A stretch of 64,000 nucleotides of DNA from Vicinamibacterales bacterium (GCA_035537875.1 DATLLJ010000035.1:29358-93357), one strand, 5' to 3'. Positions 1 to 12,085 are shown, counted from the stretch's first letter. The notes: generated by a model not told the origin, from the letters alone. Program-made: numbers and translations.

Positions 1-560
1 CGCAGCCGCAGATTGGGGACCGCATCGTCGTCGTCGGCGGCGGAACGGTCGGCTGCCTCGTCGCATGGCTTGCGGGCCGGATTCCGGGCTGCGATGTGGA
101 ACTCGTGGACACGAATCCGCAGCGTGAGGCCATCGCGCACGTCATCGGCGTGCGGTTCGCCCTTCCGGACACCGTCTGGGAGGGCGCGGACGTCGTCATC
201 CATGCGAGCGGCTCGCCGGCCGGCCTGGAGCTGGCGCTCAAGATTGCGGGGTTCGAAGCGACGGTCGTAGAAATGAGTTGGTACGGCGACCAGATGGTTC
301 CGCTGTCGCTCGGCGAGGCCTTTCACGCGCGACGACTGACGCTCAAGTCTTCGCAGGTCGGCACGGTCGCCGAATCGCAGCGCGCCCGATGGGAGCCACG
401 CCGGCGGATGCAGCTGGCGCTGACGATGCTGGCCGACACGGTGCTCGACGTGCTGATCACCGGGGAGAGCGAGTTCGAGAACCTGCCGGAAACCATGGTC
501 CGCCTTTCGACCGACTCAGGCGACACGCTGTGCCATCGGGTGCGGTATCCAAAGGAGTAG
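1..560 (+). CDS. Medium-chain Zn-dehydrogenase/reductase-like oxidoreductase, C-terminal part (5' end outside window)
   Basis: Frame 3 is open from base 3. It reads QPQIGDRIVVVGGGTVGCLVAW (GxGxxG Rossmann) and runs into the 154-aa ORF ending at 560. Confidence 0.75.
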   Translation, partial: QPQIGDRIVVVGGGTVGCLVAWLAGRIPGCDVELVDTNPQREAIAHVIGVRFALPDTVWEGADVVIHASGSPAGLELALKIAGFEATVVEMSWYGDQMVPLSLGEAFHARRLTLKSSQVGTVAESQRARWEPRRRMQLALTMLADTVLDVLITGESEFENLPETMVRLSTDSGDTLCHRVRYPKE

Positions 561-571
561 AAGCATTGACG

Positions 572-1003
572 ATGTATGGCGTGTCCGTGCGCGACCACAT
601 GATGGTTGCGCACAGCTTCAAGGGAGAAGTCTTCGGCCCGGCGCAGCGGCTGCACGGAGCGACCTTGATCGTCGACGTCGAGTTCCGGCGCTCGGAGCTG
701 GATGGCGACGGGGTCGTGGTCGACATCGGTCGAGCCTCGGAAGTCCTGCGCGGCATGCTGGCCGAGCTGAACTTCCGGAACCTGGACGAGATGCCGGAAT
801 TCAGAGGCCGCAATACCACAACCGAATTCCTCGCACGCGTCGTCTTCGACCGGATGGTCGCCGCCATCAGACGCAACGATCTCGGGGCCGCCGCACGCGG
901 CATCGAACATTTGCGGGTCACGCTGCACGAATCGCACGTCGCCTCGGCATCTTTCGAGGGCGCCGTCCCCCGGGACGCCCAATCACCGGCGCACGCAGTC
1001 TGA
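572..1003 (+). CDS. 6-pyruvoyl-tetrahydropterin synthase/QueD-fold family protein (divergent, Cys-less)
   Basis: ATG 572 lies 12 nt after the upstream stop. MYGVSVRDHMMVAHSF..GPAQRLHGAT..TTEFLA..LHESH resembles the PTPS family. The 143 aa contain no cysteine and have HGA where canonical members have HGH. Confidence 0.7.
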   Translation: MYGVSVRDHMMVAHSFKGEVFGPAQRLHGATLIVDVEFRRSELDGDGVVVDIGRASEVLRGMLAELNFRNLDEMPEFRGRNTTTEFLARVVFDRMVAAIRRNDLGAAARGIEHLRVTLHESHVASASFEGAVPRDAQSPAHAV

Positions 1004-1006
1004 ACG

Positions 1007-2086
1007 ATGTCGTGCGATGTCGTGCTGCTGGCGCCGGCACCGCTCGACGCCCGAACCGGCGGCTACGAGTACGACCGGCGAATGGCCGCGGGCTTGCGCG
1101 CCCGCGGTTGGCGAGTGGAGGTTCGTGAGCTCGATCCGAGCTTTCCACGGCCGACCCATGCGGCGCGAGATCGGGCGGCACGCCTGCTGGCCGACGTCGC
1201 CGATAACACGACGGTTCTCATCGATGGGCTCGCGTTCGGGGCCATGCCGTCCGAGCTGACGCGGGAAGCGTCGCGCCTCAGGTTCGTTGCGCTGATTCAC
1301 ATGCCGCTGGCCGATGCGGTCGGCTTGAGCGCAGCGGAGGCGGCGAGGCTCGAGGCCAGCGAACGTCTTGCGCTCGCCACCGCGAGACTCGTCGTCGTAA
1401 CCGGAAGATCGACCGTCGCCACCATGGAGCGGTATGGTGTCGAACGTCGCCGCATCGCCGTGGTGGAACCGGGCACCGACCTGACGCCTCGAGCGCGAGG
1501 AACGCGACGCGACTCACCGGGACGTCACCTCGAGCTGCTCGCCGTCGGGAGTCTCACCGAAGGCAAGGGATACGAGGTGTTGATCCACGCGCTTGCGAGG
1601 ATCCCCGACCGCGCCTGGCATCTGACGTGTGCAGGAAGCCTCGATCGCGATCCTCCCGCGGTGGCACGTGTCCGTGCCGCGGTGCGTCGGGAGAAGCTCG
1701 AGGACCGCGTCACGCTTGCGGGAGAAGTCGATGGCGAAGCCCTCGCTGCCCATTACGACGCGGCCGATGTCTTCGTCCTGGCGACGCTTCGCGAGACATA
1801 TGGGATGGCTGTGGCCGAAGCGCTGGCACACGGGCTGCCCATCGTCAGTACGAGGACGGGCGCCATTCCGGAGCTCGTGGGCGCGACAGCTTCGAGAGGG
1901 CCCGCCGGGTTGTTGGTCCCGGCTGGGGACGTCGATGCCATGTCTGCCGCGCTGTCGCAGGTCATGTCCGACGCCGGACTCCGGGCTTCGCTTGCCGACG
2001 CCGCCTGGCAGGCCCGCGAGAGCCTGCCAGCCTGGGATGACGCCGTCCACGCGATGGCGACAACCTTGGAACGGGTTTGTCCATGA
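1007..2086 (+). CDS. GT4-type (GT-B) glycosyltransferase
   Basis: 359 aa. The C-terminal half has a typical Glycos_transf_1 pattern (LAGEVDGEAL..ADVFVLATLRETYGMAVAEALAHGLPIVSTRTGAIPELV). It starts 4 nt after the upstream stop. Confidence 0.85.
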   Translation: MSCDVVLLAPAPLDARTGGYEYDRRMAAGLRARGWRVEVRELDPSFPRPTHAARDRAARLLADVADNTTVLIDGLAFGAMPSELTREASRLRFVALIHMPLADAVGLSAAEAARLEASERLALATARLVVVTGRSTVATMERYGVERRRIAVVEPGTDLTPRARGTRRDSPGRHLELLAVGSLTEGKGYEVLIHALARIPDRAWHLTCAGSLDRDPPAVARVRAAVRREKLEDRVTLAGEVDGEALAAHYDAADVFVLATLRETYGMAVAEALAHGLPIVSTRTGAIPELVGATASRGPAGLLVPAGDVDAMSAALSQVMSDAGLRASLADAAWQARESLPAWDDAVHAMATTLERVCP

Positions 2087-2901
2087 CCGCCGAGTCGCTC
2101 TCCAGGTGGCTGGCGCTTCGGGAAGGGGCTGACGCCGCCGCGCGTTCCACGGTCATCACCCGGCTCGTCCGCGACCTGGTTGTGCGGACCGGGCCGCTGC
2201 GGGTCCTGGATCTCGGGGCCGGCACCGGCGCGAACCTTCGATATCTTGCCCCTCGCCTGCCCGTCGATCAGGAATGGCTCCTGATCGATCGCGATCCAAG
2301 GCTTCTCGACGAAGCGATTCGACGAAAACCTCGGCTTGACGGTGGATTCAGCTGCGCCGTCGACACGAGGTGCTTCGATCTGTGCGGCCTCGATACACCC
2401 GAACTCTTCAGCGGCCGTCAGCTGGTCACTGCCTCGGCGCTGCTCGACCTCGTCTCAGACAGCTGGCTCAGCGCGCTTGCCGAACAGTGCCGGTCGATCG
2501 GAGCCGTAAGCCTTCTCGCACTGACTTACACCGGTCGCTCGCGATGTTCGCCTGGCGAACCTGAAGACGAACAGGTGCAGGAGCTCATGAACCGGCATCA
2601 GCACACCGACAAAGGATTGGGCGGTCCGGCGGCCGGGCCGGATGCAGTTGACGGCGCCGCGCGTGCTTTTGCCGCTGTGGGTTACCTCGTGAAGCGTGAA
2701 CCGAGCGACTGGCTCCTGTCACCCGACCAGCCCGAGTTGCAGAAAGAGCTCATCGAAGGCTGGGCACGCGCCGCCATCGAAATCGCGCCGGATAACAGAA
2801 GCACCATTCAGAACTGGCTTGGCCGAAGGCTCGCTCACCTCGAGGCTGGTCGTTCACGCATCGTGGTCACCCACGAAGATCTTGCGGCGTGGCCGTCGTG
2901 A
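2083..2901 (+). CDS. Class I SAM-dependent methyltransferase
   Basis: ATG 2083 overlaps the upstream TGA (ATGA). Motif I is VLDLGAGTGANLRYL, followed by LIDRD. Confidence 0.8.
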   Translation: MTAESLSRWLALREGADAAARSTVITRLVRDLVVRTGPLRVLDLGAGTGANLRYLAPRLPVDQEWLLIDRDPRLLDEAIRRKPRLDGGFSCAVDTRCFDLCGLDTPELFSGRQLVTASALLDLVSDSWLSALAEQCRSIGAVSLLALTYTGRSRCSPGEPEDEQVQELMNRHQHTDKGLGGPAAGPDAVDGAARAFAAVGYLVKREPSDWLLSPDQPELQKELIEGWARAAIEIAPDNRSTIQNWLGRRLAHLEAGRSRIVVTHEDLAAWPS

Positions 2902-2910
2902 TCGACCCTT

Positions 2911-3636
2911 CTATTGGGCACGGGCCGTGAACTGAACCTCGAGGGCTACTTCGTTCGCTACCCGGAGGATGTCGCTGAATTCGATCGGTCCAATGCCAAA
3001 ATCGCTCAGGAGGACTCGCGTCGTGCCCACGCCGGAAAGGGTCGCGCCCGACAACTCGGCTCTGACGTCGAACGTCACGGGCCTGGCGATCTCGCGCACC
3101 GTCAAAACTCCAATCACCCGGAGAGTCAGCTCGCGGCCCGCTGTGGTGGCACGCGTCTCGCCGTCGATCGCCGTCGCCTTGAAGGCGGCCACGGGGTAGG
3201 CGTCGAAGCTCGGCCCACCGTCGTCACGAATTTCCCGCACGTAGTCATCGCGTTTCGACTGACTGCTCGTCAGGGTGTTCACGCGTACCGTAAACGAGTT
3301 CGTCCCGGCGAGGACATCCGGGTGCTCCGGATCCAGCTGGAACTGACCCTCGATGGCGTTGGTACTTCCCAGCGCTTCGATTTTGCCGGCTTCGATCCCC
3401 AGGAGGTTCAGCGCCCCACCAAAAAACTCTTCGCTCGCGCGGTACGAGGCTCTGGATTCGGACGGCGCGATGACGAACGTGCGGAGGCCCTTGACCGGCG
3501 GATCCGAACCGGCGGACCGCGGAGCGCCGTTGACGACAGTCGTCGCCGGTTCGGGGGCGTCGCCTCCGCACGCACCGAGAAGCAGGACGAGCGTCAGCGT
3601 CGCAGCAGATCTGGGGACCATCGCGGTCATCCTCAT
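2911..3636 (-). CDS. YceI-like (polyisoprenoid-binding) lipoprotein
   Basis: Signal peptide with lipobox LLLGAC. YceI-like pattern: SRASYRASEEF..GSTNAIEGQF..SSQSKRDDY..VTFDV. Confidence 0.75.
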   Translation of the reverse strand: MRMTAMVPRSAATLTLVLLLGACGGDAPEPATTVVNGAPRSAGSDPPVKGLRTFVIAPSESRASYRASEEFFGGALNLLGIEAGKIEALGSTNAIEGQFQLDPEHPDVLAGTNSFTVRVNTLTSSQSKRDDYVREIRDDGGPSFDAYPVAAFKATAIDGETRATTAGRELTLRVIGVLTVREIARPVTFDVRAELSGATLSGVGTTRVLLSDFGIGPIEFSDILRVANEVALEVQFTARAQ

Positions 3637-3644
3637 CCGCCGAG

Positions 3645-4637
3645 TCAGATCACACGAGTGACTGCTGGATCCGAGTCCGCCCGCTTATCGGGTTTGTCGT
3701 CGGGCGCTGTCAGGTCGCAATCGAACAACACGTCGCCCCCCATTCGAAACACGCGGTAGCGAGGACGGCGGCAATCACCGAGGGCGAGCGGAGGCGGCAC
3801 TCGAATAGCGGGACGACCATCTCCGATGAGCAGCGGAGCGATGGCCACGTGGAGGCGATCGAGGAGGTTCGCCTCCAGGAACATGGACACGGTGACCCCG
3901 CCACCTTCGACGAAGATCCGCGCGCACCCCCGCGCGCGGAGAAGACGCAACAGCTCGGCGGGATCGATGCTGTCGGGGGGCCCATCCACGCCGACGATGG
4001 TCGCACGACCGAACTGCTGCTCGCCCGCCTTCGTCAGCGAACGAGAACAGACGTAGAGCGTTTCCGCTGCCCTGTCGGCGAACACACGATGATCGACGCC
4101 GAGCCGCCGCGCCGGATCGAGCACGACGCGGAGCGGGTTGGGACCATCGACCAGTCTGGTCGTGAGCTGGGGGTCGTCTGCCGCCACGGTCCCAGCCCCA
4201 ACAATGACCACGTCGCACAGCGCCCGCAGCCGATGCATATGAAGGATGTTCTGGCCGCCGGTGATCCAGTGCGACTCGCCAGCGAGCGTGGCGATGAACC
4301 CATCGAGACTCTGCCCCACATGACCGACGGTGATCGGACGAGCGGTCGTCGCGCTGCAGATCGGCAGATACAGGTCGAGAAACGGTCGGCGTGCGTCGTC
4401 GGCCGGCAGCAAGGCCTCCCACACGCCGTCGGGGCGCCACGCAAGCAAGGCGGCCGGGTCGCTTTTCATCACTCGATGCAGCTGCCCGGCGTCGTTCAGC
4501 GCAAAGACAGCGGCCTGCGCAGCAGCGGCCGCACGGCCAGCCGCTCGAGCAGCGGCCGTCACCAGCCCCCACGCGCTATCGTCGGTCGACCGGGCATCGG
4601 CCGGGCGAGCGGGAACGCTGCTCATCGGTGGTCGCAT
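3645..4637 (-). CDS. RibD C-terminal domain / dihydrofolate-reductase-like reductase with ~100-aa N-terminal extension
   Basis: VGHVGQSLDGFIATLAGESHWITG..LRALCDVVIVGAGTVAADDPQLT..IFVEGGG is the RibD_C/DHFR-like signature. Confidence 0.8.
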   Translation of the reverse strand: MRPPMSSVPARPADARSTDDSAWGLVTAAARAAGRAAAAAQAAVFALNDAGQLHRVMKSDPAALLAWRPDGVWEALLPADDARRPFLDLYLPICSATTARPITVGHVGQSLDGFIATLAGESHWITGGQNILHMHRLRALCDVVIVGAGTVAADDPQLTTRLVDGPNPLRVVLDPARRLGVDHRVFADRAAETLYVCSRSLTKAGEQQFGRATIVGVDGPPDSIDPAELLRLLRARGCARIFVEGGGVTVSMFLEANLLDRLHVAIAPLLIGDGRPAIRVPPPLALGDCRRPRYRVFRMGGDVLFDCDLTAPDDKPDKRADSDPAVTRVI

Positions 4638-4665
4638 CTAGTTGACTATAGTGCCACACCCGCAG

Positions 4666-5985
4666 TCACGACTCGCTCCTACGGACGAGCTGTCGCCGCT
4701 CGAGCGTCATCCGAACAATTGGCGGTGGACGCAGCGTGATTCTTGGCTGCGGCACCAGCTCCGTGCCGTCGGCGATCAGTCGCAATCGCCATCGCTGCGC
4801 AAACGTGGCCAGCAGCAGCACGCCTTCCATCCAGGCAAACGCTTCGCCGATGCAGTTGCGCGGTCCGGCTCCGAAGGGGATGTAGGCCATCTTGGGCCTT
4901 CCCTGCGATAGGGGGTCCAGCCAGCGATCGGGATCGAACGTCGATGGGTCCGGAAAAAAACGGGGGTCGCGATGAAGCAGATACTGGCTGATCAGGACCG
5001 TTGCGCCGCCAGAAATGTATGTCCCGCCGATCTCGAGACCGGTGGCGGCTGTGCGGGCAATCACCCACGCGGGTGGGCGCAGCCGCATCGACTCCGCCAG
5101 AATTCGACGGGTTGTGGCGAGCGCCGGTAGATCGCTGGCGGTCGCCGCCCGCTCACCCAGCACGATGTCCACTTCCCGTTCGAGCTGCGCTTCAATCATC
5201 GGATGTTGCGCCAGCAGCGTCCACGTCCACACCAGGGCGTTGGCAATCGTCTCGTGACCCGCCAGTAAGATCGTCAGGGCATCGTCTCGAGCCTGCTCGA
5301 GAAGGGCTGGAGACCGATCCGCTGACCGCAGCAGCAGGGCGAGAAGGTCGTCAGGACCCGGGCCGTCGGAGAGCCGACCGTCGATGAGCGCGTCGACGAG
5401 CGCTGCCAGGCGTGCGCGCTCGGGCCGGACTCGCCGAACCGGCGCCAGCAGAGAGATGAACGGATCGAGGGAATCGCTGGCCGTCGTCGCGGCGCGGCGG
5501 ACCTCGTCCGATACGGTCCGCAGGTCGGTGCCAAACAGCGCCTGACCGACGATCGAGAGCGTGAGTGCGCCCGTGAGCGCCACGATGTTCACCGTCTCGC
5601 CGTCTCGCCAGCCGTCGCTCATCCGCGCGGTGTGGGCGACCATGATTTCGCTGTACCGTTCGAGGCACTGCCGGTGAAAGGCGGGCTGGATGGTGCTGCG
5701 TTGGCGCCGATGTCTTTCGCCGTCGGCCGTCAGCAAGCCCTGTCCGAGCAGTCGCGCCGCTCGCCGAAGCCCGCTTGACTTCGTAAACTTGTCCTGGTGG
5801 GTGACGAGGACGGCTTCCACGAGGTCGGGGTGTTTCAAGAGGAACGCCGGGCGACCTGCGAGCGAGAAGGGCACGATCTCGCCAGGCGAACAGGCGAGCG
5901 CGTCCAGGAACGCGAGAGGATTCCGGCTTGCGCGCCGCAGGCTCCAGCGGGAGCTACGGAAATCTGGGGGGTAAGTGACGGCCAC
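4666..5985 (-). CDS. Cytochrome P450
   Basis: Heme-thiolate loop FGAGPRNCIGEAFA, I-helix LLAGHETIAN and ExxR (AESMRL). GTG start at 5985. Confidence 0.9.
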   Translation of the reverse strand: MAVTYPPDFRSSRWSLRRASRNPLAFLDALACSPGEIVPFSLAGRPAFLLKHPDLVEAVLVTHQDKFTKSSGLRRAARLLGQGLLTADGERHRRQRSTIQPAFHRQCLERYSEIMVAHTARMSDGWRDGETVNIVALTGALTLSIVGQALFGTDLRTVSDEVRRAATTASDSLDPFISLLAPVRRVRPERARLAALVDALIDGRLSDGPGPDDLLALLLRSADRSPALLEQARDDALTILLAGHETIANALVWTWTLLAQHPMIEAQLEREVDIVLGERAATASDLPALATTRRILAESMRLRPPAWVIARTAATGLEIGGTYISGGATVLISQYLLHRDPRFFPDPSTFDPDRWLDPLSQGRPKMAYIPFGAGPRNCIGEAFAWMEGVLLLATFAQRWRLRLIADGTELVPQPRITLRPPPIVRMTLERRQLVRRSES

Positions 5986-6054
5986 TCGGCCATCGCATGT
6001 TATCAGGATCGCTCAAATCTGTTGGGCTATCATCGCGATCGGTTTTTCCCCTTG

Positions 6055-8091
6055 ATGGATACCGCACCGCCACTCGACGGATCCGATCCGGCCTGGGAAG
6101 CGTTTGCCGCGCGCGAGCCCTACTTCGCCGTGCTGACGGCCCGCACCTTCCTTCGCGCGAACCTGACACCCGAACGGGAGCGCGAGTTCTTCGCGAGCGG
6201 CGAGAACTACGTCCACTGGCTCCTCCACGTCATCAATCAGCATCTCGTGCCAGAGTTCGCGCCGATGTCGACCCTCGAGTTCGGCTGCGGCGTGGGACGT
6301 CTGGCGATCCCTTTCGCGCGCCGCGCGGGACGAGTCACGGCCGTCGATCGCTCGCCGACGATGATCAAGCTGGCCAGGGAGGAGGCGCATCGCCAGGGAG
6401 TCGATCACATCGACTTTCAGACTCCGGAAGAGCTCTTCCGCGACGGACGCAAATTCGATCTCATCAACTGCTACGGCGTTTTTCAGCGACTCGAGCCCGG
6501 GGCAGGACTGCTGTTACTGCGCCAACTGGTCGGCAGTCTTGGGACGGGCGGCGTCGGCGTCTTTCAGTTTCCCTATCGGGCCTCGACTTCGACCTTCGTG
6601 GGCCTCTCCCGACGCCTGCGTTCACGTGTCACGTGGCTCAACGGCATCATCAACGTAGTTCGCGGAAAGGCGTACAGCGACCCGTTCATCGCCACGCACA
6701 CCTATCATCTCGACGATGTCTTTCGCGTGCTGGACGAGGCGTTTCGGCACCGTTACGGCGCCCCTATCGCGGCGACGCACCTCCTGTTCGAGAATCAGGA
6801 GGGTCTTGCTGCCTTCATCGCGTGCGTGGAGGCTCCACGCGAGCACGCGCGGCCTAGTGGTGGGTCGGCGCAGCACGGTGGACCGGTCGACGTGCGGGCG
6901 CTGATCGAACAGACGGGTATCGACGACCTGAACCGAAGGGCCGAGGAATACTTTTCCACCCTGAAGAACTGGGACCACCACCTGGCGAAGCCGTTCAACA
7001 ACCCGGAAGAGACGCCGTCGCTGCTGACCGGCGTCGCGACGTTGCTTCAGGGTCTTCGACCGGCCGCCGGCATGACCGTGCTCGAGTTCGGCGCGGGTAC
7101 GGGATGGCTGTCACGATTCATGACTCAGCTGGGGTGTCGAGTGATTCTGCTCGACGTCTCGCCGAGCGCGCTGACCATCGCGCGAGAGCTGTACGAGCGT
7201 CAACCGATCGTCGGCGATCGACCCCGACCGCAGTTCCTCACGTTCGACGGCCGGCACATCGACCTGCCCGACCAGAGCATCGATCGCATCGTCAGCTTCC
7301 ACGCGTTCCACCACGTGCCGAATCCCGAAACCGTGCTGCGTGAGTTCGGCCGCCTGCTGCGGCCGGGTGGAATCGCAGGCTTCGTCGAGCCCGGCCCGCG
7401 GCACTCCCTTGATCCACAGTCACAATTCGAGATGCGCGCCTATCGCGTCGTCGAGAACGACATCGATGTGCACGCCCTCTGGCGGGCGGCGCTGACATGT
7501 GGATTCAGCGACTTGAAGCTGGCGGTACACCACGCGCCGCCTTTCCTGGTGTCGCTCAGCGAGTTCGAAGACTTCCTCGCCGACAGCGGCGCTGGCGAAC
7601 CCTGGGTGAACTCGACCCGCACATACCTCCGACATGTCCGAACCTTCTTTCTCCTCAAGACAGGGGTGGAGCGGCTCGATAGCCGGTCGGTCGGTGCCCT
7701 TGCGTGCCGGATTGACGCGGTGGTTGCCGACCGCTCCGGCGTCGGACAGCAACCGGTGAGCATCGACGCGACCGTCCGGAACACCGGCACCGGCGTCTGG
7801 CTGACGGCGGAATCGGAATACGGCGGGGTCGCACTCGGCGCTCATTTGTACGATGAGTCCGGGAAACTGATCGCATTCGATCTGGTCCGCCAGCGGCTGA
7901 CCGAGCCGTTGCGCGAGGTCGTTCCTGGCGAAGTCGTCACCTGCCGTCTGACGATTCCTCCACTACCGGCCGGCCGATACGTGGTCGAACTGGACTGCGT
8001 CGCGTCGAAAGTAATCTGGTTCTCGCAGGTCGGTTCCGAGCCCGTCCGGCTGACGATCGACATCCCGGTGGTCGACATCCCGGTGGCTTGA
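6055..8091 (+). CDS. Tandem double class I SAM-methyltransferase fusion with C-terminal Ig-like domain
   Basis: ATG 6055 is chosen because the longer ORF from 5797 overlaps the P450 gene. There are two motif-I sites, LEFGCGVGRLAIPFA and VLEFGAGTGWLSRFM. The C-terminus is beta-rich (VVTCRLTIPPLPAGRYVVELD). Confidence 0.8.
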   Translation: MDTAPPLDGSDPAWEAFAAREPYFAVLTARTFLRANLTPEREREFFASGENYVHWLLHVINQHLVPEFAPMSTLEFGCGVGRLAIPFARRAGRVTAVDRSPTMIKLAREEAHRQGVDHIDFQTPEELFRDGRKFDLINCYGVFQRLEPGAGLLLLRQLVGSLGTGGVGVFQFPYRASTSTFVGLSRRLRSRVTWLNGIINVVRGKAYSDPFIATHTYHLDDVFRVLDEAFRHRYGAPIAATHLLFENQEGLAAFIACVEAPREHARPSGGSAQHGGPVDVRALIEQTGIDDLNRRAEEYFSTLKNWDHHLAKPFNNPEETPSLLTGVATLLQGLRPAAGMTVLEFGAGTGWLSRFMTQLGCRVILLDVSPSALTIARELYERQPIVGDRPRPQFLTFDGRHIDLPDQSIDRIVSFHAFHHVPNPETVLREFGRLLRPGGIAGFVEPGPRHSLDPQSQFEMRAYRVVENDIDVHALWRAALTCGFSDLKLAVHHAPPFLVSLSEFEDFLADSGAGEPWVNSTRTYLRHVRTFFLLKTGVERLDSRSVGALACRIDAVVADRSGVGQQPVSIDATVRNTGTGVWLTAESEYGGVALGAHLYDESGKLIAFDLVRQRLTEPLREVVPGEVVTCRLTIPPLPAGRYVVELDCVASKVIWFSQVGSEPVRLTIDIPVVDIPVA

Positions 8092-8176
8092 CCACGGCGA
8101 AGCACATGGGTTACCGTTCACGCGGCTTTTCGCCCATATTTTCGCCTTCGTTGCAGAGGCGCCTGGAGGAAGCGTT

Positions 8177-9202
8177 ATGAAGCGCGGACTAGTGCTGTTT
8201 GCCATCGTCGGCGCTGGCGCTACGGCGATGGGGATTGCGGCGTGCGCCCAGCAGGCGCCGACAGAACAGCAGGCGCCCCCGGCCCAGGCCGCGCCCCAGG
8301 CACAAGCCGGCCAGGCGGGCGGCGGAGGGGCCGCCGGCGGCGGAGCCGCCGCACCTGAGCGACCCAGCCTTCAGCTCGAGAAGGTGAGGAACAACCTGTA
8401 TCAGCTGCCCATCTTCAATCAGAGCAACGCGCCTGGCGCCACCACGACCATCTTCGTATCCGAGAACAACGGCGTGATTCTCGTCGACACGAAGAACCCC
8501 GGTTCCGGAAAAGCGATCATCGAGAACGTCAAGAAGGTGACGGACAAACCGATCACCACGATCATCAACACTCATACTCACAACGACCACCTGGGCGGAA
8601 ACCTCGAATTCGAGCCCCAGGTTGAAGTGATCGTGCAGGAAAACACAGTCGGCTACATGAAGGGCTTGCCGCAATTCAAGGATGGCCAGAACGCCGACCG
8701 ACTGCCGAAGAAGACGTTCAAAGACAAGATGACGCTCTTCAGCGGAAACGATTCCATCGACCTTTATCACTTCGGTCCGGCACATACCGGCGGCGACGCA
8801 TTCGTGGTATTCAGAAACCTCCGTGTCATGGCCGCGGGTGACGTCGTGGCGGCGACCGGCACACCGGTGATGGATTTGGCCAACGGTGGAAGCGCTCTGC
8901 AGTGGGGTCAGACCATCGCCAAGGCGGCAGCCGGCATCAAGAACGTCGATCTCATTACGCGCGGACACACAAGCCAGACGTGCGACTGGGCTTGTTTCGT
9001 CGAGTACGGTCAGTTCATGACGGCGTATGCGGATGCCGCGCGAGCCGCCCACAAGGCCGGCAAGACCGTCGAGCAGGCCGTGGCCGAGATTCCGACCGCC
9101 ATGGGACCCCGGTGGAAGGACTACTTCGCCGGTCTGTCGGGTCGAAACCCAGGCACGAAAGCGAACGTCACCGCGTTTTACGAAGAACTGAACAAGAAGT
9201 AG
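8177..9202 (+). CDS. Secreted MBL-fold metallo-hydrolase
   Basis: Signal peptide, then a Q/A/P/G-rich linker, then HTHNDHLGGN (HxHxDH) and a later HTGGD. Confidence 0.85.
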   Translation: MKRGLVLFAIVGAGATAMGIAACAQQAPTEQQAPPAQAAPQAQAGQAGGGGAAGGGAAAPERPSLQLEKVRNNLYQLPIFNQSNAPGATTTIFVSENNGVILVDTKNPGSGKAIIENVKKVTDKPITTIINTHTHNDHLGGNLEFEPQVEVIVQENTVGYMKGLPQFKDGQNADRLPKKTFKDKMTLFSGNDSIDLYHFGPAHTGGDAFVVFRNLRVMAAGDVVAATGTPVMDLANGGSALQWGQTIAKAAAGIKNVDLITRGHTSQTCDWACFVEYGQFMTAYADAARAAHKAGKTVEQAVAEIPTAMGPRWKDYFAGLSGRNPGTKANVTAFYEELNKK

Positions 9203-9213
9203 CCTCTTCGCTC

Positions 9214-9248
9214 CCGTACGCGACGGCTCATCCATCCGTCGCGTACGG
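9214..9248 (+). terminator. Stem-loop downstream of the MBL gene
   Basis: Perfect 13-bp arms ccgtacgcgacgg / ccgtcgcgtacgg with a 9-nt loop, 12 nt after the stop. No T-tract. Confidence 0.5.
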
Positions 9249-9347
9249 AGTCTGAGCCCGCCGCTCCAGCTCAACCCGTTTATCGTTCAGCTCGGTCGCG
9301 TGGCGTGTCGGTACGCACTATGCGTTAAGTCCGGCCGGAGGCGCATT

Positions 9348-9911
9348 GTGAAACAGCTCCCGGTTGTGCTGGCTATTGGTCTAACGCTGCTCCGCGTGTC
9401 CGCCACCTCGGCTGTTCAAGCACCCGAAGTCAATCCCGACGCGCAACTCCTGCTCGAATTCAAGGAGCGCGTCGATCACTACCTGCAGCTTCGCAACAAA
9501 GCAGATGATGGAGCGCCTCCCCTGGAGAAAACGGAGGACGTCGCACAGATTCGCCAGGCCCAGCTGACGCTGGCCGAACGGATCAAGGCCGCCCGCTCGG
9601 GCGCCAAGCAAGGCGACATCTTCACGCCTGCCATTGCGTCGCAGTTCAAGCGGCTGGTCCACCTGCCGGCGAGGGAGACCGGTTCGAAGGAGATTCTCAA
9701 GGAGGACAATCCCGGAGCCATTACCTTCAAGGTCAACGAGCGCTACCCGGACAAGGAACCGCTTGCGACGGTACCGCCGGCTGTGCTCGGCAGTCTACCG
9801 AAGCTGCCGGAAAAGCAGGATCTCGAATACCGCTTCGTCGGCAAACACCTCGTTCTGCTCGACACGCGCGCACACTTGGTCGTCGATTACGTACCCAATG
9901 CCGTTTCGTAG
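9348..9911 (+). CDS. Hypothetical secreted protein
   Basis: GTG 9348 is preceded by GGAGG (9336-9340). Signal-like N-terminus VKQLPVVLAIGLTLLRVSATSAVQA. No recognisable domain. Confidence 0.5.
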   Translation: MKQLPVVLAIGLTLLRVSATSAVQAPEVNPDAQLLLEFKERVDHYLQLRNKADDGAPPLEKTEDVAQIRQAQLTLAERIKAARSGAKQGDIFTPAIASQFKRLVHLPARETGSKEILKEDNPGAITFKVNERYPDKEPLATVPPAVLGSLPKLPEKQDLEYRFVGKHLVLLDTRAHLVVDYVPNAVS

Positions 9912-9930
9912 GAGTGCGTGAGGTTCAATC

Positions 9931-10821
9931 ATGCCCAGCCGCCATGTCTCTCGATGTGCCAGTCTGCTGGCTTTGGTCGTCGCGATTGCCACGCTCGGAG
10001 CCCAGGACATCACGCTGCCGGCCAAGCCGGACTCACTGAAGTTTGCCGTGATCGGCGACAGCGGAACGGGCAGCTCCGCCCAGTACCGCGTGGCAGAAAT
10101 GCTGTTCAAGGCGCGGGCGACGTTCCCCTACGAGTTCGTGATCATGATGGGGGACAACCTATACGGCCGGGAGACGCCAAAGGACTTCGAGAGGAAGTTC
10201 GAGCTGCCGTATAAGCCGCTGCTCGATGCCAACGTCAAGTTCTACGCCAGTCTCGGCAATCACGATGAGGCCAACCAACGTTATTACAAGCTGTTCAACA
10301 TGAACGGCGAGAAGTACTACACGTTCAAGCCGAGAGATGGGGTGCGGTTTTTCGCGCTCGACAGCAACTACATGGACCAGGCTCAGCTCGACTGGCTGGA
10401 AAAGGAACTCGCCGCGAGCGGGTCGGACTGGAAGATCGCGTTCTTCCACCATCCTCTTTATTCGTCCGGGGGCCGGCACGGCTCCGACCTCCAGCTCCGT
10501 GAGCGGCTCGAGCCGATGTTCCTGAAACACGGCGTCGACGTCGTGTTCTCGGGCCACGAGCACTTCTACGAACGAGTCAAGCCGCAGAAGGCGATCTACT
10601 ACTTCGTGTCAGGAGGGGCCGGGAAGCTGCGGGAAGGCGACGTCAGGCCAAACAGCGAGCTGACCGCCAAAGGGTTCGATACGGGGTACCACTTCATGTT
10701 GCTGGAGCTCGAGAAGGACGTCATGCATTTCGAGGCGGTCAGCGACCAGGGCAAGAGCGTGGACAGCGGCAGCCTGCCGCGCTTCAGCGACGCCGAGAAA
10801 AAGAAACTGGCGGGCTTATAG
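9931..10821 (+). CDS. Secreted calcineurin-like metallophosphoesterase (purple-acid-phosphatase-like)
   Basis: Motifs GDSGTG, GDNLY, GNHD, HHPLYS and GHEHFYER. Signal peptide present. Confidence 0.85.
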   Translation: MPSRHVSRCASLLALVVAIATLGAQDITLPAKPDSLKFAVIGDSGTGSSAQYRVAEMLFKARATFPYEFVIMMGDNLYGRETPKDFERKFELPYKPLLDANVKFYASLGNHDEANQRYYKLFNMNGEKYYTFKPRDGVRFFALDSNYMDQAQLDWLEKELAASGSDWKIAFFHHPLYSSGGRHGSDLQLRERLEPMFLKHGVDVVFSGHEHFYERVKPQKAIYYFVSGGAGKLREGDVRPNSELTAKGFDTGYHFMLLELEKDVMHFEAVSDQGKSVDSGSLPRFSDAEKKKLAGL

Positions 10822-10833
10822 CCGCTCGAGCCA

Positions 10834-11067
10834 TCAGGAGCGGCCGAGCGCGTGTTGGACGGCCGCTAGCGCCTCTTCGTCGGCTGGAAAGCCCGCGGCG
10901 TCCTTTCTGGCGACGATCTGATCATCCACCCAGACGGTGAATTCACCCCGTCCGCCTTCGATGAGCTCAGCGTCGAGACCTGCCTGATCTTTGATGAGCG
11001 CGGCCACACGGACCGCGCGCGGCCGGTAATTTCAAACCTTGCAGTAACGAATGCGGATCTTGTTCAT
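10834..11067 (-). CDS. SelW/Rdx-family selenoprotein, in-frame UGA (Sec) at 11034-11032
   Basis: ATG 11067: MNKIRIRYCKV-UGA-NYRPRAVRVAALIKDQAGLDAELIEGGRGEFTVWVDDQIVARKDAAGFPADEEALAAVQHALGRS, stop at 10836-10834. The CxxU redox motif and the GxGxFxVxV core match the Rdx fold. A hairpin follows the UGA. Confidence 0.7.
10998..11018 (-). promoter_or_regulatory. Candidate bacterial SECIS hairpin
   Basis: On the mRNA, 16 nt after the U of UGA: GCGCGGUC-CGUGU-GGCCGCGC. This is an 8-bp stem (one G-U pair) with a 5-nt loop containing GU. Confidence 0.45.
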
Positions 11068-11087
11068 CGGGAACCGGGGCGAAAAAA

Positions 11088-11381
11088 CTAGTCGTCCTTG
11101 TGCTTCTTGGTCTCGGCTGCATCCATGCGGTGCTCTTCGTGTTCCTTGAGCGCCGACTGGTATTCTTCGTACTCGCGCCCCTTGTGGACGGGCGCCCAGC
11201 GCTTCCTTTCGGCACGAGCCAGCGCCAGCGTGTGCTCCTTCGTGGTCATGCCGGCGGGCACCGAGAGCAGCCGCTCGAGATCCGCCCCGCTGCACGATGG
11301 GCACGTCGGCGCATCTCCGGGACGCACCAGAATCTCGAATTGCTGGCCACAGGCCAGGCACCGATACTCGTAGAGCGGCAT
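11088..11381 (-). CDS. FmdB-family CxxC_CxxC zinc-ribbon protein
   Basis: ATG 11381: MPLYEYRCLACGQQFEILV..APTCPSCSG, the typical FmdB regulatory zinc-ribbon N-terminus. The C-terminal tail is charged. Confidence 0.75.
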   Translation of the reverse strand: MPLYEYRCLACGQQFEILVRPGDAPTCPSCSGADLERLLSVPAGMTTKEHTLALARAERKRWAPVHKGREYEEYQSALKEHEEHRMDAAETKKHKDD

Positions 11382-11473
11382 ACAACCAAAGTCTACCAGA
11401 TCGCTCTTTACAGAGAGGTGGGTGCGGTGTACTGTCGATGCGCTTTCGGCGATTTTGAAAGGATGGCCGGCGT

Positions 11474-12085
11474 ATGAAGAGTTCCGTCCGCACTCTGCTC
11501 GTCTTCGGCATGCTCGTGACAATCGTGCCTGCCGTCACGCATGCTCATTTCAGGCTGCTCGAACCTGCGTCATGGTTGATCGAAAACGAGCGTGGCGATC
11601 CGCAGAAAGCGGGTCCCTGCGGTGGCAGCAACACCGATTGGGGAAAACCAAGCTACATCGTCACGAAAGCCATGGGCGGGTCGAAGCTGCATCTCAAGGT
11701 CCAGGAGACGGTCTTCCACCCGGGGCATTATCGCGTGTCGCTGGCGGTGAACTCGCCCACCGAACTGCCGCCTGATCCCGAAACGCAGACCAAGCCGAGC
11801 GACCGCGGCCCCTGGTCGGTCACCGCCACAGTCCAGAACCCGCTGGCCATTCCGGTGCTGGCGGACGGGTTGTTCGTTCATACGGCTAGAGTGGATACGC
11901 CGTTTGAAACGGACGTGCAGCTCCCCAATATCAATTGCAAGAAGTGCACGCTTCAGGTCGTGCAGTGGATGGCCGAGCACGCCTTCAACAACCCCGGGGG
12001 CTACTCGTACCATCACTGCGCCGATCTGCAGATCACGGCAGACCCCTCGAAGCCGATCGACAAAGGTTGGCCTGCTGAACGTTAA
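11474..12085 (+). CDS. Secreted LPMO-like (histidine-brace candidate) protein
   Basis: Signal peptide MKSSVRTLLVFGMLVTIVPAVTHA followed by HFRLLEP, so the mature N-terminus would be His. Also an internal HPGHY and conserved Cys (PCGG, CKKC, HHCAD). Confidence 0.65.
   Translation: MKSSVRTLLVFGMLVTIVPAVTHAHFRLLEPASWLIENERGDPQKAGPCGGSNTDWGKPSYIVTKAMGGSKLHLKVQETVFHPGHYRVSLAVNSPTELPPDPETQTKPSDRGPWSVTATVQNPLAIPVLADGLFVHTARVDTPFETDVQLPNINCKKCTLQVVQWMAEHAFNNPGGYSYHHCADLQITADPSKPIDKGWPAER

Follow-up and report, generated by a model that had tools for sequence, protein, structure and literature searches.

Within the PTPS/QueD family (COG0720/PF01242), the subfamily PTPS-IV is large and very conserved and has a crystal structure that dates from 2008, yet no function has been assigned to it. 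That structure, PDB entry 3D7J, is of SCO6650 from Streptomyces coelicolor and bears the deposit title 'Uncharacterized protein'. The motif FGPAQ has been recognized as the PTPS-IV signature, and PF00925 [GTP cyclohydrolase II (GCH II)] has been noted in the gene neighbourhood of the subfamily (PMC5445326). Here we analyse a PTPS-IV gene cluster at the start of a 64,000-nt stretch of DNA from an acidobacterium of the order Vicinamibacterales (GCA_035537875.1, DATLLJ010000035.1:29358-93357). This whole stretch is referred to as the window, and coordinates are those of the window unless another locus (L) is named. The window holds the right-hand half of a cluster of the SCO6650 type, which extends beyond the left edge into upstream DNA (L002), where two membrane genes are divergent from its dehydrogenase gene. 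The cluster product is likely to be a component of the cell envelope instead of a free pterin.

The SCO6650 neighbourhood is of the same type and in relatives includes GCH II; compared with such clusters, the one described here has neither a dedicated GCH II nor a flippase-like gene and adds a YceI lipoprotein and a cytochrome P450. Other described systems resemble it in part. The early steps of riboflavin, archaeal F420 and toxoflavin synthesis combine GCH II or III with a RibD_C-type reductase. The RibD_C protein of the cluster has the diaminopyrimidinone-phosphate reductases 6P8C and 2AZN as its best solved relatives, and related clusters encode GCH II; however, the cluster lacks a deaminase, lumazine synthase, riboflavin synthase and FO synthase, its reductase falls under the riboflavin-specific NCBIfam cut-offs and carries some 100 extra N-terminal residues, and there is no co-occurrence with the F420 ligase CofE. 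The phospholipid head-group systems (PgsA, Pss or PIP synthase, then EptA, LtaS, OpgB, GacH or BcsG, with the flippase MprF) are similar in logic, in that a lipid is made inside and its phospho-alcohol is then transferred outside; they also share the CDP-alcohol motif, the EptA/LtaS fold and, in relatives of our cluster, PF03706. Nevertheless, sequence similarity to these enzymes is very low, and the presumed head group is not glycerol, ethanolamine, serine or inositol but would be what the PTPS-IV operon makes. The first steps of mycobacterial phosphatidylinositol-mannoside and mycothiol synthesis involve GT4 enzymes (PimA together with PIP synthase, and MshA acting on inositol phosphate) near the one found here, which likewise stands beside a CDP-alcohol phosphatidyltransferase, but there is no inositol-phosphate synthase in the cluster, whose polyol would come from GTP via RibD_C, a medium-chain dehydrogenase/reductase (MDR) and PTPS-IV. 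Finally, in the pteridine glycosides of cyanobacteria and Chlorobium (BGluT, PgtA), the pterin side chain receives its sugar from a GT-B enzyme of about 350 aa. Unlike our cluster, those pathways use canonical GTP cyclohydrolase I (GCH I), PTPS and sepiapterin-reductase chemistry and come without lipid-transfer genes.

Judged by its gene content, the cluster would join chemistry of the early riboflavin type to the synthesis and transfer of phospholipid head groups. In the literature searched, this combination was not found described, and no paper named SCO6650 or combined 6-pyruvoyl, CDP-alcohol phosphatidyltransferase and glycosyltransferase; no paper found there that pairs GCH II with CDP-alcohol genes concerned a PTPS-IV cluster. 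A first-pass annotation of the window had mentioned similar gene sets of alpha-proteobacteria as having no assigned product, and none was found in that literature.

The PTPS-IV protein and its conserved partners

The seven open reading frames (ORFs) of that annotation were all confirmed, with the expected family matches, as was its picture of a tightly packed plus-strand run converging on a minus-strand run. Together with the two membrane genes upstream, they are:

1..560, plus strand: 3' part of a Zn-less, NAD-type oxidoreductase of the MDR superfamily (BchC-like); the full gene (333 aa) is at L002 16917-17918
572..1003, plus strand: PTPS-IV (SCO6650-type) T-fold protein, 143 aa (PF01242, 1e-21, 77.6 bits against a cut-off of 22.4)
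1007..2086, plus strand: GT4 retaining glycosyltransferase, 359 aa (Glyco_trans_1_4, 2.5e-29)
2083..2901, plus strand: class I S-adenosylmethionine (SAM) methyltransferase, 272 aa, cluster-specific (Methyltransf_25, score exactly equal to the cut-off)
2911..3636, minus strand: YceI-family lipoprotein, accessory (PF04264, 2.3e-15; lipobox LLLGAC)
3645..4637, minus strand: RibD_C-type pyrimidine (ribosylamino) reductase paralogue, 330 aa (PF01872, 1.1e-39)
4666..5985, minus strand: cytochrome P450, 439 aa, adjoining, not a conserved member (PF00067, 3.5e-66)
L002 16073-16801, outside the window, minus strand: CDP-alcohol phosphatidyltransferase (CDP-OH transferase; PF01066, 6.3e-16)
outside the window, divergent from the MDR gene: LtaS/EptA-like transferase, polytopic, 542 aa (PF00884, 31.9 bits against a cut-off of 25)

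The dehydrogenase gene stops at 558-560, and AAGGAG precedes the ATG of the PTPS-IV gene at 572, 11 nt past that stop. The PTPS-IV stop (1001-1003) is followed 3 nt on by the GT4 ATG at 1007, the GT4 and methyltransferase genes overlap by ATGA (2083-2086), and a gap of 9 nt separates the methyltransferase stop (2899-2901) from that of the convergent YceI gene.

The PF01242 match of the T-fold protein covers profile positions 2-120 of 121, which bears out its earlier placement in the PTPS/QueD family. As that annotation noted, the protein has no Cys and reads LHGAT (in full, FGPAQRLHGAT); these traits are the published hallmark of PTPS-IV/SCO6650 and are not specific to this locus. The protein matches 3D7J at E 1.2e-47 over 131 residues (1-131 against 21-151), shares FGPAQ with it and has lost the same residues. 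In an alignment with the QueD of its own genome, the Glu and two of the three Zn His (the first one and one of the two in HGH) are retained, with Ala replacing the Cys, Ala replacing the second His of HGH and NF replacing the Asp-His dyad. The canonical motif of PTPS-I/QueD or PTPS-II (CxxxHGH or CxxxxxHGH with the Asp-His dyad) is absent, and the score against the QueD model TIGR03367 is 35.9 bits, compared with a cut-off of 89. The same genome encodes two canonical PTPS/QueD paralogues, with CQHPHGH and CEGLHGH. These sequence features place the protein in PTPS-IV and set it apart from canonical PTPS and QueD enzymes.

PTPS-IV proteins are 60-78% identical across phyla. In the signature region, EVFGPAQRLHGAT, residues F21, G22, P23, A24 and Q25 are at least 98% conserved among 82 sequences, and so are 39 of the 143 positions across these sequences, which come from four phyla; the ring-anchoring Glu is invariant. 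The family was scored at more than 8000 clusters at 90% identity, a lower bound; a search of 1.84 billion representatives gave 78 matches at E ≤1e-30. In a few proteins of eukaryote-like composition (P0244, encoded at L097 258-1724 on a TARA ocean metagenome scaffold, P0245, P0281 and P0250), three PTPS-IV domains stand in tandem in one chain, possibly forming a single-chain pseudo-trimer; the 855-aa P0245 runs on into a domain that matches the profile of the cluster methyltransferase (hhalign probability 94.7%).

Relatives were sought in one genome per species. At least 363 were found, and the best-scoring 80 loci with 10-kb flanks, mostly from Micromonospora, were retained; presence was scored by tblastn and by iterated profile searches with the window proteins and extra neighbours. 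Since shadow ORFs arise in high-GC DNA, profile matches were relied on instead. Frequencies refer to the 57 fully flanked loci, which belong to Acidobacteriota, Actinomycetota, Proteobacteria and Myxococcota. The GT4 gene is present in all 57 and the MDR gene in 56, followed by those for RibD_C (47), the methyltransferase (45), a flippase-like protein of the PF03706/MprF type (42), the CDP-OH transferase (41), RibA-type GCH II (35) and the LtaS-like protein (34); at least one membrane gene is found in 55 loci and either RibD_C or GCH II in 50. Neighbourhood conservation therefore supports the proposal of a conserved biosynthetic cluster around a catalytically altered PTPS-fold protein, with the glycosyltransferase and the methyltransferase among its members. 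Co-location of the core genes is not due to chance, but the expected co-conservation does not extend to the P450.

The MDR gene starts 442 nt to the left of the window. In 80 of 82 loci it is the gene immediately upstream of PTPS-IV. Its product has the Rossmann motif GGGTVG and the conserved Asp after beta-2. Its N-terminal half reads SGISRGTE where Zn-dependent alcohol dehydrogenases have GICGSD, with no GHE and no Zn-ligand Cys or His, so that the catalytic Zn ligands of Zn-dependent MDR alcohol dehydrogenases are missing. Among Pfam domains, ADH_N was not detected and ADH_zinc_N stayed under its cut-off; the best family match is to BchC (6.8e-16), far below the cut-off of that model. Two apparent MDR-PTPS fusions (P0374, P0322) resemble frameshifted gene calls and were not used as evidence.

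The glycosyltransferase has the E-x7-E motif (ETYGMAVAE). Among proteins of solved structure, it is closest to sucrose-phosphate synthase, MshA, BshA and PimA, enzymes whose substrates are phosphorylated polyols, small acids or phosphatidylinositol. The first-pass comparison with cyanobacterial pterin glycosyltransferases found no backing: the source names of the GT4 homologues are generic, none of them naming a pterin glycosyltransferase. A match of this protein to PF20706 raised the question of an anti-phage conflict system; this idea was rejected, as PADLOC returned nothing beyond a generic methylase match. The methyltransferase carries an N-terminal WLxLREPAD and the SAM motif VLDLGAGTG, and its AlphaFold2 (AF2) model has a pLDDT of 96.6.

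The RibD_C protein scores 136.7 bits against PF01872 (cut-off 24) and has no deaminase domain. It reaches 133 bits against TIGR00227 (cut-off 150) and 99 bits against the archaeal reductase model TIGR01508 (cut-off 186). Its N-terminal extension of roughly 100 aa (3645-3950), ALLAWRPDGVWEALLP...LYLPICS, is conserved and has no family match; the extension is present in the acidobacterial and proteobacterial versions and missing from the 223-aa version of Pseudonocardia (L093). Whereas the first-pass annotation had this protein reducing a ring, enzymes of the RibD_C type reduce the ribosyl side chain instead.

The GCH II of related clusters is a RibA-type enzyme (NF001591, 5.4e-77), encoded in five of the 12 acidobacterial loci. 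At the position of E. coli Tyr105, it has Tyr in 36 cases and Met in five; the latter is the type of SCO6655, an enzyme reported to stop at the formylated intermediate, with an altered product. In an Rfam search at E up to 1, no riboswitch or other RNA was detected around the cluster, and seven related loci yielded only a SAM-IV riboswitch (L038 19138-19248, minus strand, 103 bits) about 9 kb from a Micromonospora cluster and probably unrelated to it.

Other neighbours vary by lineage. The P450, put forward earlier as a possible hydroxylase of the pathway, is confined at this position to the nearest relatives L003 and L006 (2/12 acidobacterial loci) and is found neither in L005 nor in other Gram-negative loci; its role may be lineage-specific tailoring, or it may have nothing to do with the cluster. 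Divergent from it, at 6064-8091 (plus strand), is a gene whose 675-aa product contains two class I methyltransferase domains, both complete; this gene occurs in none of 81 related loci and is not a cluster member; a gene for a metallo-beta-lactamase-fold protein is not conserved with the cluster either. YceI genes have two independent settings: one follows the methyltransferase gene here and in L003, L005 and L006, and a different one separates the two membrane genes of five Hydrogenophaga-type loci, giving a frequency of 9/24 in Gram-negative loci and 0/58 in actinobacterial ones. The lipoprotein is predicted to bind lipids or polyisoprenoids in the periplasm.

Analysis of the phyletic distribution showed that PTPS-IV is patchy among Acidobacteriota (16 of 301 genomes, 10 of 186 genera) and near-core in Micromonospora, the genus of L058 (72 of 81 genomes). 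An alpha-proteobacterial version of the gene set, mentioned in the first-pass annotation, does exist, in a metagenome-assembled genome (MAG) of Hyphomicrobiales. Two further MAGs, labelled Synechococcus sp. UW140 (L021) and Bifidobacteriaceae (L018), carry clusters organized like the Hydrogenophaga and acidobacterial types, respectively; these contigs are probably mis-binned and not cyanobacterial or bifidobacterial copies. In the window, G+C content is 0.66-0.685 over positions 1-6000, where the cluster lies, and 0.59-0.62 over 8000-12000; together with the patchy distribution within the phylum, the high value may reflect horizontal acquisition. Upstream of the cluster, L002 6007-9922 encodes a pair of large proteins with ankyrin repeats (about 650-750 aa each, their ORF calls overlapping), which the relative L003 has as well. 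A cytochrome-like protein with DUF1592/PSD domains and a DUF1552 (HXXSHH) protein adjoin the cluster (L002 9977-14023, L096 4921-8284); these neighbours are common to this genome, its near relative L003 and a distant proteobacterial MAG, which may be a coincidence or a further link.

Membrane genes divergent from the core

The gene for the CDP-OH transferase is divergent from the MDR gene at a distance of 115 nt, and the LtaS-like gene lies 6 nt further. The motif of CDP-alcohol phosphatidyltransferases, D(x)2DG(x)2AR(x)8G(x)3D(x)3D, is intact (LDGVDGWMARREGLASPFGARFDVETD), and its positions are conserved in 61 homologues. Against pgsA the protein scores 34.7 bits (cut-off 109), and it has weak similarity to PIP synthase and archaetidylinositol-phosphate synthase. 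The LtaS-like protein was modelled with AF2 through an orthologue with 65% identity, using a 29-sequence alignment (pLDDT 87.9). The model consists of N-terminal transmembrane helices (the helical part spans residues 2-206) followed by an alpha/beta domain of the alkaline-phosphatase type. A Foldseek search with it returned 9NWW, 5FGN, 4UOP, 2W8D, 6DGM and 6PCZ at E values of 4e-9 to 1e-5; the fold matches include full-length phosphoethanolamine transferases (9NWW, 5FGN), LtaS/LtaP, GacH, BcsG and PbgA. In most such transferases, a membrane phospholipid donates the phospho-alcohol and the acceptor is extracytoplasmic. Residues E235, S271, D470 and H471 are invariant in 29 homologues and T278 is nearly so; as candidate metal ligands and nucleophile, they resemble the LtaS set.

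Fusions and operons provide the best reason to believe that what the PTPS-IV operon makes is the substrate of the membrane enzymes. The CDP-OH transferase and the LtaS-like protein are fused in a single ORF of 709-896 aa in 12 of 82 loci, two acidobacterial and 10 actinobacterial (L010, L013, L025, L033, L036, L040, L047, L053, L055, L056, L069 and L073). In one locus, the genes for MDR, PTPS-IV, the CDP-OH transferase and the flippase-like protein form a single operon. MprF-type flippase-like genes occur in other phyla and are absent from the cluster of this genome.

A candidate pathway and its alternatives

The protein families and their neighbourhood suggest the following outline, whose chances we judge to be about even. 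A pyrimidine- or pterin-like polyol derived from GTP would be oxidized or cyclized, glycosylated, methylated and joined to CDP-diacylglycerol, and the head group may then be moved to an envelope acceptor. Each single step is less probable than the outline. The gene families, their co-conservation, the fusions and the folds are observed; the chemistry, the order of the steps and the nature of the acceptor should all be read as deductions from them. First, GCH II, in this organism the housekeeping enzyme and in many relatives a dedicated copy, would make 2,5-diamino-6-ribosylamino-4(3H)-pyrimidinone 5'-phosphate. The deaminase-less RibD_C paralogue would then reduce the ribosyl to a ribityl group, diverting the compound from riboflavin synthesis. 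The Zn-less, NAD-type MDR protein may oxidize an alcohol of the side chain or reduce a C=N or C=C bond, and PTPS-IV may bind the 2-amino-4-oxo-pyrimidine face, with the product rearranged or cyclized to a pterin-like ring. A chemically economical option at this stage would be oxidation of C2' followed by closure with the 5-amino group, giving a dihydropterin; GCH I arrives at a dihydropterin by an Amadori rearrangement. GT4 would add a sugar and the methyltransferase a methyl group. Next, the CDP-OH transferase would couple the resulting alcohol to CDP-diacylglycerol, yielding a phospholipid with a new head group, and the LtaS/EptA-like enzyme would pass its phospho-head group on to an acceptor located beyond the cytoplasmic membrane. 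In Gram-negative bacteria, YceI may be the periplasmic binder or carrier of the lipid form; in actinobacteria, the MprF-type flippase-like protein may serve instead.

Stated in full, this reading has bacteria of at least four phyla making a phospholipid that bears, as its head group, a pteridine or diaminopyrimidine polyol derived from GTP, glycosylated and methylated; a dedicated LtaS/EptA-like enzyme would then transfer this phospho-head group to an envelope acceptor. In this form the proposal is tentative, and on balance we consider it the less probable outcome. Several points weigh against the outline itself, which is built wholly on family membership and gene neighbourhood. There is no cluster-linked GCH II in this genome, where the only PF00925 gene is on another contig, and the precursor would therefore have to come from the housekeeping enzyme. 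As RibD_C is also missing from about a fifth of the loci, an origin from GTP is not obligatory on neighbourhood grounds. The MDR protein could be a reductase instead of a dehydrogenase. The CDP-OH transferase is missing in 16 of the 57 loci, some of which have only the flippase-like gene, so the lipid-coupling step may vary by lineage or be optional. When the LtaS-like protein was compared with the PDB, a sequence search gave nothing significant and a profile search reached only an E value of about 0.8, so that its catalytic residues could be assigned only as candidates. Likewise, a Foldseek search with the methyltransferase model returned generic class I methyltransferases only, with TM-scores of about 0.5-0.6.

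The best surviving alternative, which we nevertheless consider improbable, is the one proposed at first: a soluble pterin that is glycosylated, methylated and perhaps hydroxylated, like the pteridine glycosides of cyanobacteria and Chlorobium, with membrane genes that are unrelated or serve for export only. The tight operon of PTPS-fold protein, GT4 and methyltransferase would fit such a product, some loci do lack the CDP-OH transferase, and known pteridine glycosides bear sugars, some of them methylated. However, 55 of the 57 loci have at least one membrane gene of lipid type beside the core; such genes, divergent from the core here, elsewhere share an operon with PTPS-IV or are joined in one ORF, and they point to a lipid-linked or envelope product, not to a soluble pterin glycoside. 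The P450 that might hydroxylate the product is not conserved, the GT4 homologues carry no pterin glycosyltransferase among their names, and PTPS-IV lacks the residues required for the PTPS/QueD reaction on dihydroneopterin triphosphate. Of the original idea of a pterin-type substrate, a pterin or pyrimidine derived from GTP is still the best guess, given the frequencies of RibD_C and GCH II, but a free soluble pterin is improbable.

Slightly less probable still is a diffusible secondary metabolite or cofactor derived from GTP, in the style of toxoflavin or a riboflavin analogue, for which the membrane proteins would provide self-protection, export or an unrelated lipid modification. The presence of GCH II and RibD_C within clusters, the five GCH II enzymes with Met at the Tyr105 position and the patchy occurrence in Acidobacteriota would agree with this view, as would the one hint from expression, the induction of SCO6652, a neighbour gene in S. 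coelicolor, in late mycelium. On the other hand, near-core status in one actinobacterial genus and high identity across phyla fit a physiological role in the envelope or as a cofactor better than an antibiotic, no transporter or resistance gene is found among the conserved neighbours, and the fusion of the CDP-OH transferase with the LtaS-like protein argues for a shared substrate made by the cluster.

We regard as unlikely, more so than either of these, an ordinary glycolipid or envelope glycan that does not start from GTP, in which case MDR and PTPS-IV would have a sugar or polyol as substrate, and their neighbours RibD_C and GCH II would be coincidental or regulatory. The invariant triad consists only of MDR, PTPS-IV and GT4, GCH II is missing from the cluster of this genome, and GT4 enzymes and CDP-OH transferases commonly build glycolipids. 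Nevertheless, GCH II or RibD_C is found inside the cluster in 50 of the 57 loci across phyla, the ring-anchoring Glu of PTPS-IV does not vary, and T-fold proteins of the PTPS family bind purine or pterin-like rings.

Least of all do we expect a role of PTPS-IV in the biosynthesis of coenzyme F420 or FO, with the cluster as a related pathway: the Actinomycetota, which are rich in the cluster, make F420, and this genome encodes CofE (G000:C24:13324-13968, L092, 3.9e-77), but of 301 Acidobacteriota genomes 16 carry PTPS-IV and 33 carry CofE, with an overlap of one (this genome) against about 1.8 expected by chance, and no F420 gene is found among the conserved neighbours. With 15 of the 16 PTPS-IV carriers lacking CofE, the link was rejected on co-occurrence, although a review states, citing unpublished work, that PTPS-IV is involved in F420 synthesis (PMC5041015). 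At 33 of 301 genomes, CofE is frequent enough that F420 use is not rare in the phylum. A GCH I-independent folate route is also unlikely as an essential role of the cluster, given its patchy occurrence within the phylum and the presence in this genome of two FolE genes along with the two canonical PTPS/QueD paralogues.

Significance for the PTPS-IV family

What the window itself adds is relatively modest, namely one more copy of the cluster, in a Gram-negative variant with YceI and a P450, from a soil acidobacterium. The comparison of neighbourhoods links PTPS-IV to two modules that are each well understood but have not been seen in combination before, early riboflavin-type chemistry starting from GTP and the building and transfer of phospholipid head groups. 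If the lipid-linked reading is true, a new lipid head group or envelope modification is to be expected, which would probably fluoresce; in the full form of the proposal, it would represent a class of membrane lipid and envelope decoration without a described counterpart. It would also provide the first function for PTPS-IV and its Zn-less MDR partner and would settle a long-standing annotation problem in COG0720.

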